A stretch of DNA of 64,000 nt. Origin: Candidatus Thorarchaeota archaeon (GTDB lineage Archaea > Asgardarchaeota > Thorarchaeia > Thorarchaeales > Thorarchaeaceae). Shown here in pieces: positions 7,255 through 41,172 of this stretch. The stretch spans positions 160,001 to 224,000 of the forward strand of contig JBHLRZ010000001.1 in assembly GCA_048882045.1 (NCBI GenBank), read 5' to 3'. Below the pieces are notes generated by a model, which worked only from the letters and a program-made list of their open reading frames with translations, was not told the DNA's origin and ran no database searches. Position numbers and translations under genes: made by a program. Numbering within the stretch: position 1 is the first letter of the stretch; every line of letters begins with the position of its first letter.

Positions 7255-8343
7255 TTGTGTGTTGTGATGTACTGCCCCAATCACTTGACCGATGAGAGAA
7301 TCATTTCAAGAGCAATTGGTGTTTGTTCAGTATGTATCAGCGAAGGCCATATTGGTTTGGCAAAACAGGAACATGAGAGATTGCGACATCGGGACGGACT
7401 GATTTCAGCCATACCTTCTATCGGAGAAATTGTTTGCGCGGAATGTGGAAACCACTGCAGATTGAAAGAGGGAGACATAGGATTCTGCAACATTCGAGTC
7501 GCTAGGAATGGGGAGATTGTTGATAAACACTCAACGAGTGCTGTAGTTTCCTGGTATTTTGATCCCTTGCCAACAAACTGTGTAGCAGATTGGGTCTGTC
7601 CAGTGATAAAGGAGCGAGAACTTGGATTTGGGAAACAACGTCTCAATAATCTTGCCGTATTCTATGGATCGTGCAACTCCGACTGTCTGTTCTGCCAGAA
7701 TGCAAGTTACAGAACAATGATGGCGCAAGGAAGGCCATTGATGACTCCAATGGAGCTAGCCAATGCCGCTGATGATCAAACTGCGTGTGTCTGTTACTTT
7801 GGTGGAGATCCCGCTTGTAATGCAGAACATTCGGTGAAGACATCAAAGATTCTGAACGAGTCAAAGCAAGTCAGAGTCTGTTATGAAACAAATGGAAATA
7901 TCTCTAAAAAATGGCTGAGAACTATCGCGGACATTGTTGAAACCACAGGAGGGACCTTGAAGTTCGACCTCAAGGCTGTGACTCCTGGGATCTATAAAGC
8001 CCTGACCGGAATATCGAACTCTGTTGTTCTACGGAATTTCAGAGAGCTCTCTGCTGCAAAGAGGGAGCGAGATGGAGAGTTTCTAGTAGCCAGTATACTT
8101 CTTGTTCCCGGATATATCGACCTGCCCGAAGTAAGGAATCTTTGCAAGTTCATTGCTGAATGTGACCCATCAATTCCGACAGCATTACTAGGATTCAGCC
8201 CTCATCATGCAATGAGTGACTTACCAAGAACGAGTAGAAATCATGCAAAAGCGGCACTTGAGATTTCAAAAGAAGCAGGTTTAGAGAATGTAAGAATTGG
8301 GAATCTTGGCCTTCTTGGAATGAATAACTACAGAGTTGAATAA
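7255..8343 (+). CDS. Radical SAM protein, PflA/COG1180-like, with Cys-rich N-terminus
   Basis: CNSDCLFC (CxxxCxxC), YFGGDP, YETNG, KFDLKA; N-terminal CxxC clusters. Confidence 0.88.
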   Translation: MCVVMYCPNHLTDERIISRAIGVCSVCISEGHIGLAKQEHERLRHRDGLISAIPSIGEIVCAECGNHCRLKEGDIGFCNIRVARNGEIVDKHSTSAVVSWYFDPLPTNCVADWVCPVIKERELGFGKQRLNNLAVFYGSCNSDCLFCQNASYRTMMAQGRPLMTPMELANAADDQTACVCYFGGDPACNAEHSVKTSKILNESKQVRVCYETNGNISKKWLRTIADIVETTGGTLKFDLKAVTPGIYKALTGISNSVVLRNFRELSAAKRERDGEFLVASILLVPGYIDLPEVRNLCKFIAECDPSIPTALLGFSPHHAMSDLPRTSRNHAKAALEISKEAGLENVRIGNLGLLGMNNYRVE

Positions 8344-38503: not shown

Positions 38504-38968
38504 ATGTGCAATAGTAATAGTATGACTCTCGATTATGATCTGATGCAGCGACTAGTAGAAGACCTCAATGTGGGAATTTGTGTCCTCGATAAGGACGACA
38601 ATATTGTGGTATTCAATCGTAAGGCCGGTGAGCAATTACACCAAGACAATAAGAGCCGAATCAGTTCATCCATTTTACGCTGTCATCCAGAACGGGCTGA
38701 AGCAGGAGTACTCAAGATGATTGGGGAGCTGAAGAGTGGGAAACTCGAAAAGTACGAGGGGTGGGTCCATTTCATTGGTAGACATTTCTATGAGTACATC
38801 TATCCCATCAAAGACGACAATGGTAAGTATCTTGCAACTGTGATGGAGCTACATGATGCTGCTGAGAGAGCAGAATATCTTAGAATAACTGAAGGCTGGA
38901 ATCCCCCAGAAGAGCACGGACTCGGAGAGAGCTCACCAAGGGCGCCATTTCCTAAGAAGTTCAAGTAA
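38504..38968 (+). CDS. Stand-alone PAS-domain protein (start possibly 38522)
   Basis: GICVLD.DD.IV.FN, I..CHP motif, PI.DD.G.Y...E. Confidence 0.75.
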   Translation: MCNSNSMTLDYDLMQRLVEDLNVGICVLDKDDNIVVFNRKAGEQLHQDNKSRISSSILRCHPERAEAGVLKMIGELKSGKLEKYEGWVHFIGRHFYEYIYPIKDDNGKYLATVMELHDAAERAEYLRITEGWNPPEEHGLGESSPRAPFPKKFK

Positions 38969-39479
38969 ATGAGTCGTCACCCTTACTTATTGACCCGGGT
39001 TTAAGCAGTGCCCTTAGGATGTAACCAATGAACCCAATAAGACCAGCAATCAAACAGAAATTATACACTGCTCCAAACGTGAACAGATTTACGAATGGAT
39101 TTCCTAGAACTGGGAAGAAAGGATTCATTTCAGCATAGAGAAACGAATCAAGAAAGACATGGGAATATGTGCCCACAAAGCTTGCTCCAATGATGTGACG
39201 GAGAGATGATGTCTGATGGAGTCCGAATAATGATACGATACTATTCAGATATTTGCGAAATGGGTACACAAATCCTGAAAGAACCAGCGCAGCAATCGTT
39301 GCTCCAAGATATGTGTGAAAGAATCCATGAAGAGGATATGGCAAACTAAGGAACATGATGGCCATTGGTTCCAGATCAACAATCACACTTGCTATCATTA
39401 ATGTGACCAAATCAACAAAGGGAAAGAGAAGAATTCCTAGAAGAAGACTAGGACCGAAGTGGTAAGGTGTGAATGGCAT
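38961..39479 (-). CDS. Membrane metal-dependent hydrolase (DUF4184/YdjM-like)
   Basis: MPFTPYHFGP start, D.EP, LHGFFHT, SHVFLDS, MNPFFP. Confidence 0.78.
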   Translation of the reverse strand: MPFTPYHFGPSLLLGILLFPFVDLVTLMIASVIVDLEPMAIMFLSLPYPLHGFFHTYLGATIAALVLSGFVYPFRKYLNSIVSLFGLHQTSSLRHIIGASFVGTYSHVFLDSFLYAEMNPFFPVLGNPFVNLFTFGAVYNFCLIAGLIGFIGYILRALLKPGSISKGDDSFT

Positions 39480-39675
39480 CGATCTATAACTCACAGCTTC
39501 ACGTAATAAGTTACATGAACTAAGGAAAGTTGTACGAAAGAAACGGAGTATGTTCTCCCACTCTGTCAGAAAATTCGAAATGCTACAGAAGAAGCGAAAT
39601 CCCCCGTCCACCCCGTTGAGAACAGAAAGAAGGAGAACATTCCAATCTTCATGACCGGGGGACTTCATTGATACG

Positions 39676-39757
39676 GTAACAACATTACGTAATATATTTT
39701 TCGCTTTGTGATTATGTTACCGAAAGATATATTACTTGTAACATGTAATACTATTTC
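39676..39757. promoter_or_regulatory. Cluster of GTAA-N5-TTAC-like palindromes upstream of the repeat-protein gene
   Basis: GTAACAACATTAC (39676), GTGATTATGTTAC (39708), GTAATACTATTTC (39745), partial GTAATATATTTTT (39689). Confidence 0.6.
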
Positions 39758-39874
39758 GAGGTATTTGGATGATTCAGCGAATCAATGACTGCTTCGGACT
39801 GGTAATAACTGGTCGAATCAATTTCGATGACAACATTGTCACTGAATCCTCACTCATATCGGAGGAGATAGAGA

Positions 39875-40501
39875 ATGTTTGATAATAGAAACCAAAGAGT
39901 TGCATTTGCAACTGGAATCCTGTTCATACTTGTACTGGCTGTCTTCGGTTCACTGTTTGCAGCCGCTTCTATGAGCATGAACAATACTATGGCTGTGCTG
40001 CCGGATAGTCACTCTGCTGAGGATACAGCAGCTCTTGCCTGGCGCCTTGATCCTGGTGAATCAATGTCAATTGACTTTCGATTAGATCCAGGTGAAACTG
40101 CTACAATTGACTTTCGACTTGATCCCAGTGAAACCGTTTCAATTGACTACAGAATCAATCAAGCTGAAGCCATTTCTGGTGGTAGGAGTGATCCTGGCAT
40201 GGCAAGTATGGTTGACTGGCGTCTTGATCCTGGTGAAGAGACAGCTGTGGACTATCAGAGAGAGCTAGGTCAGGTCGTATCAGTTGACTTCCGCCTAGAC
40301 CCAGGTCAGACAGTGTCAATTGATTTCAGGCTTGATACTGGTGAAGTGGTATCTGTCGATTTCAAGCTTGATCCAGGTGAGACTGTTTCTGTTGACTTTC
40401 GCCTTGATCCCAGTGAAACCGTTTCAATTGACTACAGGTATGCCGCTGAAGTATTAAGTGGATCAGGCGGAGAGCTAGGAATGCTCTATGTAGTCGATTA
40501 G
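39875..40501 (+). CDS. Exported 12-aa tandem-repeat protein of unknown function
   Basis: GGAGG RBS, N-terminal signal/TM, about 12 repeats of D(F/W/Y)RLDP(G/S)E(T)VS(I/V). Confidence 0.85.
   Translation: MFDNRNQRVAFATGILFILVLAVFGSLFAAASMSMNNTMAVLPDSHSAEDTAALAWRLDPGESMSIDFRLDPGETATIDFRLDPSETVSIDYRINQAEAISGGRSDPGMASMVDWRLDPGEETAVDYQRELGQVVSVDFRLDPGQTVSIDFRLDTGEVVSVDFKLDPGETVSVDFRLDPSETVSIDYRYAAEVLSGSGGELGMLYVVD
40037..40440 (+). repeat. Degenerate 36-bp coding tandem repeat
   Basis: 36-bp period; 40107..40152 and 40392..40437 differ at 1 of 46 nt. Confidence 0.85.
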
Positions 40502-40661
40502 ACGGAATGTAAGCCCAACCCCGAAGAAGAAAGAAGGAGAACGCTTGGTTTTTCAGGAAAAGAGTGCCAAGGCACTCTTTCTAATCTTATTTTCATATTC
40601 ACAAAACCCACTGCAATATGAAAGCACATACTTCAAAAATGAAATCCAAGAGAACTGATTT

Positions 40662-40997
40662 CTACTTCTCTTGGAATGCTTCAAAGGCATGCTTCTTGGC
40701 GGAATCGCGAAGTTTGCGAATATCGGCGGCTTGAACTTTGATCTGTTCGAACATTTGACTTCTAGCGGCAATTGCTTGTTCTACAAAAGCAGACACAGCT
40801 TCTGATCGACTTTTGAAAATCTCGAGTTCAACTAATGCATCAAGGATTTCAACGATGTCGCCACTCATTCGAGTCATCACTGAAACTTCACGCTTCTTTG
40901 AAAGGTCATCTTCAGAAAGACGGCCTAGGAGTTGTTCTCGAAGACTCACTTGAACCGCCTCTGTTTTTGATTCTTTAGTGTCGGGCACATCTTTCAC
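40662..40997 (-). CDS. Ribbon-helix-helix (CopG/MetJ-type) transcriptional regulator
   Basis: VSVMTRM....VEILDALVELEIFKSRSEAV..FV..AI. Confidence 0.8.
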   Translation of the reverse strand: MKDVPDTKESKTEAVQVSLREQLLGRLSEDDLSKKREVSVMTRMSGDIVEILDALVELEIFKSRSEAVSAFVEQAIAARSQMFEQIKVQAADIRKLRDSAKKHAFEAFQEK

Positions 40998-41039
40998 CTC
41001 ATGATACTATAGACATGAAATCTTATAATTCTTTTTCAC

Positions 41040-41052
41040 GTAATACTATTAC
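41040..41052. promoter_or_regulatory. Perfect palindrome GTAATA-C-TATTAC between the TATA-like box and the RHH start (candidate autoregulatory operator)
   Basis: 43 nt upstream of the RHH start; minus-strand TTTTATATAG at 41061..41070. Confidence 0.6.
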
Positions 41053-41172
41053 ATAATCCACTATATAAAAGGTTCTAAATGTGAAAAAAATTCGACCAAC
41101 TGTTTGTCCTGTTGATTCTTGAGGCTTGAACAGCAATTGATTCTGTATAGATGTGGTCACCTGTTCCTCTTT

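Follow-up and report, generated by a model that had tools for sequence, protein, structure and literature searches.

An open reading frame on the forward strand of this contig encodes a predicted exported protein with a long array of 12-residue repeats, and the question it raises is what kind of protein this is: an anchored surface protein, a small membrane subunit with a loosely constrained tail, a fiber subunit, a precursor of secreted peptides, or no protein at all. The window referred to below is the whole 64,000-nucleotide (64-kb) stretch that was analyzed, and coordinates are those of the window unless a locus or contig is named. The best reading, to which we assign a rough probability of 0.55, is that of a surface protein tethered to the membrane and subject to regulation, the repeat ectodomain of which evolves fast and is probably beta-rich. 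The components of the gene are as follows.

39861..39874, plus strand: Shine-Dalgarno-like GGAGGAGATAGAGA, immediately 5' of the ATG, nearly identical in 12 orthologous loci
39875..40501, plus strand: whole open reading frame of 208 aa (P0001), with anchor, linker, repeat array, tail, and stop codon (from the translation and orthologs)
39875..39985, plus strand: conserved N-terminal module, with basic residues 1-8, hydrophobic helix 9-32, and MSMNN 33-37 (invariant alignment columns; AlphaFold2 helix)
39986..40036, plus strand: acidic linker, residues 38-54, with ALA at its end before the first unit (from the alignment)
40037..40144, plus strand: repeat block A, three 12-aa units of type [AD][WF]RLDP[GS]E..[ST]I (Tandem Repeats Finder and parse)
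40145..40213, plus strand: irregular 23-aa unit (DYRINQAEAISGG...), residues 91-113 (parse of the repeat units)
40214..40429, plus strand: repeat block B, six 12-aa units (Tandem Repeats Finder and parse)
40430..40498, plus strand: 23-aa C-terminal tail with a short hydrophobic/aromatic stretch at its end (LGMLYVVD) (compared with relatives)

The nine canonical 12-mers, at residues 55-90 and 114-185, conform to D-[FWY]-R-L-D-P-G-E-x-V-S-[IV] and contain one Gly at most. A sequence-only reading of the window had described an exported protein made almost entirely of this repeat; the repeat and the export or anchor segment are both present, but the array spans about residues 55-188 of 208, which is roughly two thirds of the protein. 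With basic residues before it and acidic ones after it, the hydrophobic stretch runs to about 23 to 24 residues; the ectodomain has a net charge of -20, and residues 38-208 include 32 acidic ones. An AxA motif at residues 29-31 closes the hydrophobic segment (AAA before S here, AVA before W in relatives), and an N-glycosylation sequon, NNT, follows the helix in most but not all members, too near the membrane. The signal is not of the archaeal type IV pilin-like (class III) type, which has [KR][GA] directly before the hydrophobic stretch, in that here this stretch is preceded by R and this in turn by a variable H/Q/Y/A/G, and neither a lipobox [LVI][AST][GA]C nor a conserved Cys after the helix is found in the family alignments. 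The C-terminal tail opens like a repeat unit (DYRY...), and relatives likewise finish in short hydrophobic tails.

At the DNA level, Tandem Repeats Finder detects a 36-nt period in two stretches, 40049-40148 and 40283-40425, and a separate repeat search reports 7 in-register copies; because the matches in the former amount to 70-75%, the DNA copies of the unit are old. It had been proposed that the units differ largely at synonymous positions and that the peptide is under selection, and this is borne out: pooled over all 12-mer pairs, pS is 0.65 and pN is 0.26, giving a Jukes-Cantor-corrected dN/dS of ~0.21, a rough figure in that repeat units are not independent. The 46-bp duplicated block reported earlier is also confirmed, with 40107-40152 recurring at 40392-40437 with one mismatch, and it represents a higher-order duplication, because both array halves close with DFRLDPSETVSI and then DYR[IY]..AE..SG.GG. 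The irregular 23-aa unit resembles the C-terminal tail and marks where the two parts of this internal duplication join.

The gene is a regular component of the genomes of its genus, and its absence from related genomes, which the sequence-only reading had named as grounds for abandoning its interpretation, is not observed. Searches with the full protein find short relatives (123-169 aa) in its own genus only, in 10 of 27 species, whereas a profile of the first 60 residues (profile A2) finds the gene in 20 of the 27, with one copy each and always in the same syntenic position among the orthologous loci. Elsewhere in the family the profile matches 1 of 58 genomes, on a 1.6-kb contig of another genus, and among the 301 genomes of the phylum the other families yield one marginal match (E = 3e-4) and nothing convincing; the metagenome-assembled genomes searched are 71-99% complete, so that a gene not found need not be missing. 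A HMMER scan of 1.8 billion representatives returns further short family members and no fused or longer form. The long matches in that scan (P0011, P0014, P0021, and P0036-P0057), many of which look eukaryote-like, were rejected as homologs, being unrelated low-complexity or other repeats that have D-P-G-type periodicity alone in common with the family.

Conservation is concentrated in the N-terminal 60 residues, and the ectodomain varies in unit length, copy number, and motif. In the full-length family alignment, 26 columns are invariant, including R8, F11, A12, G14, F24-G25-S26, A29, A31, the MSMNN of residues 33-37, and the first A-W of the repeats, and D44 and E49 of the linker are nearly invariant. 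Ortholog arrays are built of 12-mers (D[FY][RK]-LDP-x-x-V-R-x-[IL]), of 21-mers composed of a 12-mer plus a 9-mer, or of pure 9-mers (DAVRVIDFK), and some orthologs carry unrelated motifs (DRLxFENAV, RGPIEIxP, and YWPTPTED). Members of the DFR type have the core V-R-x-I-D-[FY]-[RK] in common, with anchor-to-anchor spacings of 9 (27 cases) or 12 (31 cases) residues. Two metagenomic alleles, P0005 and P0010, are near-identical apart from exactly one 21-aa unit, a difference that looks like the signature of slippage or unequal recombination.

Two further observations concern the edges of the family. In one species (G018:C74:9053-9166, in L049) the anchor and ectodomain parts of the ortholog are split by an in-frame TGA or a frame break, for which either gene decay to a pseudogene or faulty assembly could account. 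In a second genus, an 87-89-aa N-terminally anchored protein of similar architecture lies divergent from the ortholog of the ribbon-helix-helix (RHH)-like gene discussed below (L064:642-911, L065:643-912, L066:640-909, and L067:655-918); it has a duplicated VP(K/I)EIH motif, and its RRVPIEI recalls the RRGPIEI/RGPIEI repeats of some family members. Homology of this protein to the family is unsupported, the hhalign profile comparison giving 17% probability.

The preferred reading takes the product to be a small bitopic membrane protein, almost wholly limited to one Thorarchaeota genus, whose short basic N terminus would remain cytoplasmic (N-in/C-out signal-anchor topology, as predicted by the positive-inside rule). 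Its hydrophobic helix of ~23 residues and the invariant MSMNN would anchor it in the cytoplasmic membrane, and its acidic ectodomain, with the core [IV]-D-[FYW]-[RK] every 9 or 12 residues, would be shown on the cell surface. The helix is likely kept and not discarded, because invariant residues such as it has would be unusual in a signal peptide, and it may pack against another helix; cleavage at AxA, were it to occur, would release the protein, not tether it. Unequal recombination or slippage would grow, shrink, and replace the array as the anchor and regulatory flanks stay constant, and array turnover behind a constant anchor would therefore make the ectodomain a species-specific surface feature, which perhaps serves as a coat, as a spacer, or in contacts.

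The contrast between anchor and array also lends itself to another explanation, possible if unlikely, in which the conserved transmembrane helix is itself the functional part. The protein would then be a small subunit or modulator within the membrane, packing against itself or a partner membrane protein, and the ectodomain would be a tail under weak constraint, for the most part disordered, where repeats arise and decay. This explanation fits with the anchor and MSMNN being far better conserved than everything downstream, with ectodomain motifs that are unrelated between species, with the low pLDDT of the ectodomain, and with the small residues G14, G25, and A29, which from the alignment would lie on one helical face. 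However, the dN/dS of ~0.21 together with the [IV]D[FY][RK] core conserved in many species argues that the repeats are constrained, and a constantly adjacent membrane protein is absent, with inserted genes separating the YdjM-like membrane protein gene from the repeat gene in some species.

How the ectodomain folds was approached through profile searches and models. The statement that no family is recognizable stands: there is no full-domain match in Pfam, NCBIfam, or PDB sequences, and thus no described family to which the protein belongs. Pfam Fn3-like (PF14310) scores 33.8 bits in total, the best stretch aligning residues 69-93 with columns 28-52 of 71, and membership was rejected on the grounds that these are repeated partial matches of one hairpin motif, covering 25 of 71 columns, with no whole-domain match. 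NEW3 (PF10633) and other Ig-like models match likewise in part, below threshold, and all of these matches appear to reflect the L-x-PGE-x-x-V-x-F hairpin common to Ig-like domains, not domain membership. In NCBIfam, SitI3 and LIC_10183 are sub-threshold and far under their cutoffs, and PADLOC antiphage defense profiles match none of the three local proteins.

AlphaFold2 predicts a helix at residues 4-36 (pLDDT 77-96) and is confident for the helix alone, the ectodomain having a pLDDT of 27-57 with or without the family alignment of 10 sequences; in the better of the two models, short strands recur at 12-residue intervals over the x-[IV]-D-F-R core, at low confidence. Compared with shuffles, the ectodomain of the window protein has a high beta-type hydrophobic moment (z = 4.2); the moment is weaker in four relatives (z 1.3-2.5) and negative in a 9-mer relative, which scores as alpha-type. 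The earlier proposal of a beta-strand/turn unit is therefore supported in the window protein by its amphipathicity but does not extend to the family, across which beta amphipathicity is not kept. In the window genome each 12-mer would form an amphipathic strand (V-S-I-D-F-R-L) capped by a D-P-G-E turn, and a strand and turn per 12-mer would make the array most likely an extended beta-rich hairpin meander and not a globular domain. A strand-turn meander is thus the probable, low-confidence prediction for this genome; given a pLDDT of 27-57, the ectodomain may instead be disordered.

A solenoid or fiber is the structural alternative suggested at the outset: a beta-solenoid or functional-amyloid fiber subunit, secreted or shed by cleavage, the units of which stack between molecules into a fiber or sheath. 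The amphipathic strand-turn units would suit it, as would the AxA motif, and the low-confidence ESM Atlas model of the protein has beta-roll/RTX-like models as its nearest neighbors (TM 0.52-0.56), a weak lead; feature-based look-alikes were not found in the ESM Atlas. However, the fold is never confident in two AlphaFold2 runs, curli, RTX, and other repeat families are unmatched in Pfam, NCBIfam, and PDB, an ectodomain net charge of -20 disfavors stacking, and the invariant hydrophobic helix favors membrane retention. Twelve residues with bulky F/L/I/V side chains are, moreover, too few for a solenoid coil without disulfides. With the ectodomain at a pLDDT of 27-57, beta amphipathicity that is not family-wide, and a helix that implies tethering, the fiber proposal gained no support, and we consider it rather improbable.

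The genes around the repeat gene bear on a third explanation, in which the protein is a multicore precursor of secreted peptides of the pheromone or ribosomally synthesized and posttranslationally modified peptide (RiPP) type, with the N terminus as leader and 9- to 12-mers excised and possibly modified. The chromosomal block is conserved among the orthologous loci, in the order MsrA, PAS protein, YdjM-like membrane protein, repeat gene, convergent ~110-aa gene, YgbA, small protein, and FAD-linked oxidase. The observation that no modifying enzyme is adjacent is correct for the window, in which the neighbors are the PAS, YdjM-like, RHH-like, and YgbA genes. In some species there is instead an upstream NUDIX gene and, between it and the repeat gene, an inserted three-gene block coding for a 112-aa protein, a 537-aa TPR protein, and a 601-aa B12-binding radical SAM enzyme (L014:3141-7696, L017:3887-7720, and L018:1025-5580).

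The radical SAM gene adjoins the repeat gene in four species, immediately upstream and on the same strand, with three of these confirmed on longer loci, and, like the arrangement of a conserved leader followed by repeated variable cores, it speaks for a peptide precursor. It belongs, however, to the inserted block with the TPR gene, and it is missing beside the repeat gene here and in at least four other species; the window genome has no radical SAM ortholog, only paralogs of 30% identity or less. The enzyme was rejected as a required partner on these grounds, and the RiPP reading is thereby weakened. Further, a conserved protease or transporter is absent near the gene in the ortholog loci, there is no dibasic or other constant boundary or cleavage site, the units vary in length (9, 12, or 21 aa) as well as in sequence, and the presumed leader is a full-length transmembrane helix. 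The precursor proposal thus fared no better than the fiber, its units being variable, its cleavage motif not conserved, and its radical SAM neighbor not conserved, and we regard it as very unlikely.

Two other features of the neighborhood are worth recording. In relatives, the RHH-like gene and YgbA are separated by a four-gene NiFe-hydrogenase-like cluster (4Fe-4S dicluster, FAD/NAD-binding, small subunit, and large subunit; L014:9245-13211, with the same block in L015-L017), which is missing from the window. The YdjM-like 235-aa open reading frame (38961-39668, minus strand) is probably overextended; orthologs begin MPFTPYHFGP, placing the likely start near 39479 (172 aa), and the apparent N-terminal extension overlaps the conserved noncoding hairpin block described below.

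That the frame is not a gene but an opening within a noncoding tandem repeat, in which repeats hold several frames open and antisense and off-frame open reading frames are present, is effectively refuted by conservation, as the nonrepetitive N-terminal 54 codons are protein-conserved in 20 species, the start codon lies behind a conserved Shine-Dalgarno-like sequence, and the frame is maintained despite complete repeat turnover.

The regulated character of the protein is suggested by its one constant neighbor and by the promoter elements below, three of which lie upstream of one or the other gene.

39676..39688, plus strand: GTAA-N5-TTAC palindrome, ~200 nt 5' of the repeat-gene ATG (at -173 to -205 in six close orthologs)
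39744..39757, plus strand: promoter box TGTAATACTATTTC, ~130 nt 5' of the repeat-gene ATG, 12 of 13 positions of which match the partner-promoter palindrome
40662..40997, minus strand: convergent partner gene, ~110 aa, RHH-like by motif only and presumed to be a regulator, a constant tail-to-tail neighbor
41039..41053, no strand assigned: palindromic box (C/T)GTAATAnTATTAC(G/A) in the partner's own promoter, conserved in two genera

Among the ortholog loci, the convergent ~110-aa gene, the true start of which is probably the GTG at 40988, is the sole constant neighbor of the repeat gene. Its designation as RHH-like is prompted by the motif ...VSVMTRMSGDIVEILD...SRSEAVSAFVEQAI and by the palindromic box in its promoter; at E ≤ 0.01 no RHH family is matched in Pfam or NCBIfam, and there is no PDB homolog. 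The protein belongs to a multicopy family that occurs in 11 of 16 genera, and its orthologs proper (E < 1e-39) occur in 21 genomes of the genus, the window genome included. Every one of these has the anchor gene, bar one in which it is cut at a contig end, and six species show neither gene. This co-occurrence is modest to weak evidence of a functional pair, because the genes are adjacent, the species are kin, and the two lie in one syntenic block, and convergent orientation alone does not imply coregulation.

The promoters provide stronger evidence. The box at 41039..41053 sits just 3' of a TATA-like element, and with one mismatch or fewer the palindrome of the partner promoter has no second occurrence in the 3.6-Mb genome. 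Twelve orthologous loci keep the box that precedes the repeat gene, and in L011 a perfect palindrome stands at -132. The common motif, GTAATAnTATT, occurs 3 times in the 64-kb window versus 0.05 expected and is confined to the two promoters (39745-39755 for the repeat gene); the 12-mer with a leading T, TGTAATAnTATT, is found at four loci in 3.6 Mb and its reversed control at none. The adjacent RHH-like protein thus probably controls transcription of the repeat gene via the promoter box common to both, as judged from these motifs. Only two other genomic sites carry the palindrome TGTAATAnTATTACA, on contig 4 at 89572-89586 (L073:2073-2087) and on contig 42 at 7998-8012 (L074:1999-2013), one lying ~340 nt upstream of two tandem open reading frames for small membrane proteins and one directly upstream of a 181-aa open reading frame; these may be further members of the same regulon.

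Outside the promoters, the gene is flanked by two related noncoding elements.

39596..39667, no strand assigned: GC-clamped hairpin block containing the 15-mer AGAAAGAAGGAGAAC (39624-39638), conserved, ~210-270 nt 5' of the repeat gene
40528..40542, no strand assigned: second copy of AGAAAGAAGGAGAAC, the only other one in the 64-kb window, 27 nt past the stop codon

The hairpin block accompanies the repeat gene whichever gene lies further upstream. The downstream copy of the 15-mer, with C as its first base, is kept at +53 to +80 in five close species, and six close species conserve both copies; more distant orthologs have a GGGGAG...CTCCCC hairpin and a C/T-rich tract downstream instead. The minus-strand RNA of the block folds with -30.3 kcal/mol (z -2.1), no Rfam family matches it, and a coding role is disfavored because of indels; candidate identities are a divergent small RNA, terminator elements, and scars of recombination.

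A more far-reaching possibility, which we consider doubtful, is that the anchor-repeat gene and the RHH-like regulator together make up a "surface identity" module dedicated to that purpose in this Asgard genus. Newly born tandem repeats would rebuild the ectodomain time after time, under a diversifying pressure exerted by viruses or by the recognition of partners or kin, and in some species the ectodomain would self-assemble into a single-layer beta-sheet or surface fiber.

Asgard archaea are the closest prokaryotic relatives of eukaryotes, and their cell covering and their contacts with partners and viruses are almost unexplored. A single-copy, regulated, membrane-tethered protein with an exterior remade between species would be a candidate for a role at the Asgard surface, and it provides a clean natural example of repeated tandem-repeat birth behind a fixed anchor. 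The interest of the family comes mainly from its Asgard host and its tidy regulatory pairing; it is an orphan, and its value is as a lead and not as a solved mechanism.

Several known systems invite comparison. Functional amyloids such as curli CsgA and the archaeal sheath protein MspA are exported proteins with short strand-turn repeats that are released and lack a conserved membrane helix. The Thorarchaeota protein likewise appears to have strand-turn repeats, but it has no sequence match to these, it has a conserved membrane helix, and it gives no confident cross-beta model; it is not placed among curli-type or other functional amyloids by Pfam, NCBIfam, or PDB searches or by its neighbors (PAS, YdjM-like, RHH-like, and YgbA). 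Multicore precursors, including yeast alpha-factor, fungal Kex2-processed repeat proteins, and the cyanobactin precursor PatE, have an N-terminal targeting or leader segment and tandem short units; the Thorarchaeota protein differs in having neither dibasic or conserved cleavage sites nor conserved processing or tailoring genes, and in units that are not conserved between species, and its Pfam MF_alpha match covers 6 residues (E = 0.65). The 9-residue units of relatives, with their conserved Asp, resemble the RTX nonapeptide beta-roll (HemolysinCabind, PF00353), but the GGxGxD glycine-rich motif is lacking and there is an N-terminal membrane anchor, not a C-terminal secretion signal; PF00353 is absent among Pfam matches down to E = 10, and the protein is not assigned to the RTX proteins.

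In structural terms, the closest motif is the PGE hairpin found in Ig-like domains (PF14310 and PF10633), which each 12-mer matches, although the protein contains no complete Ig-like domain. The nearest described phenomenon is that of the amino acid tandem repeats (aaTRs) of Methanoperedens Borgs, which, according to the preprint (bioRxiv 10.1101/2022.05.18.492195), are of recent origin and give rise to disordered regions in a large number of proteins. The two have in common in-frame tandem repeats in archaea, independent origin, fast evolution, selection at the peptide level, and a copy number that varies between close relatives. They differ in that the Thorarchaeota DNA units are old and degenerate (70-75% matches), and in that the repeats are confined to one dedicated single-copy chromosomal gene, behind a membrane anchor, and look strand-forming in the window genome. 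The sequence family thus appears to be new; the class into which it falls, that of surface proteins with fast-evolving tandem repeats, is broad and familiar.
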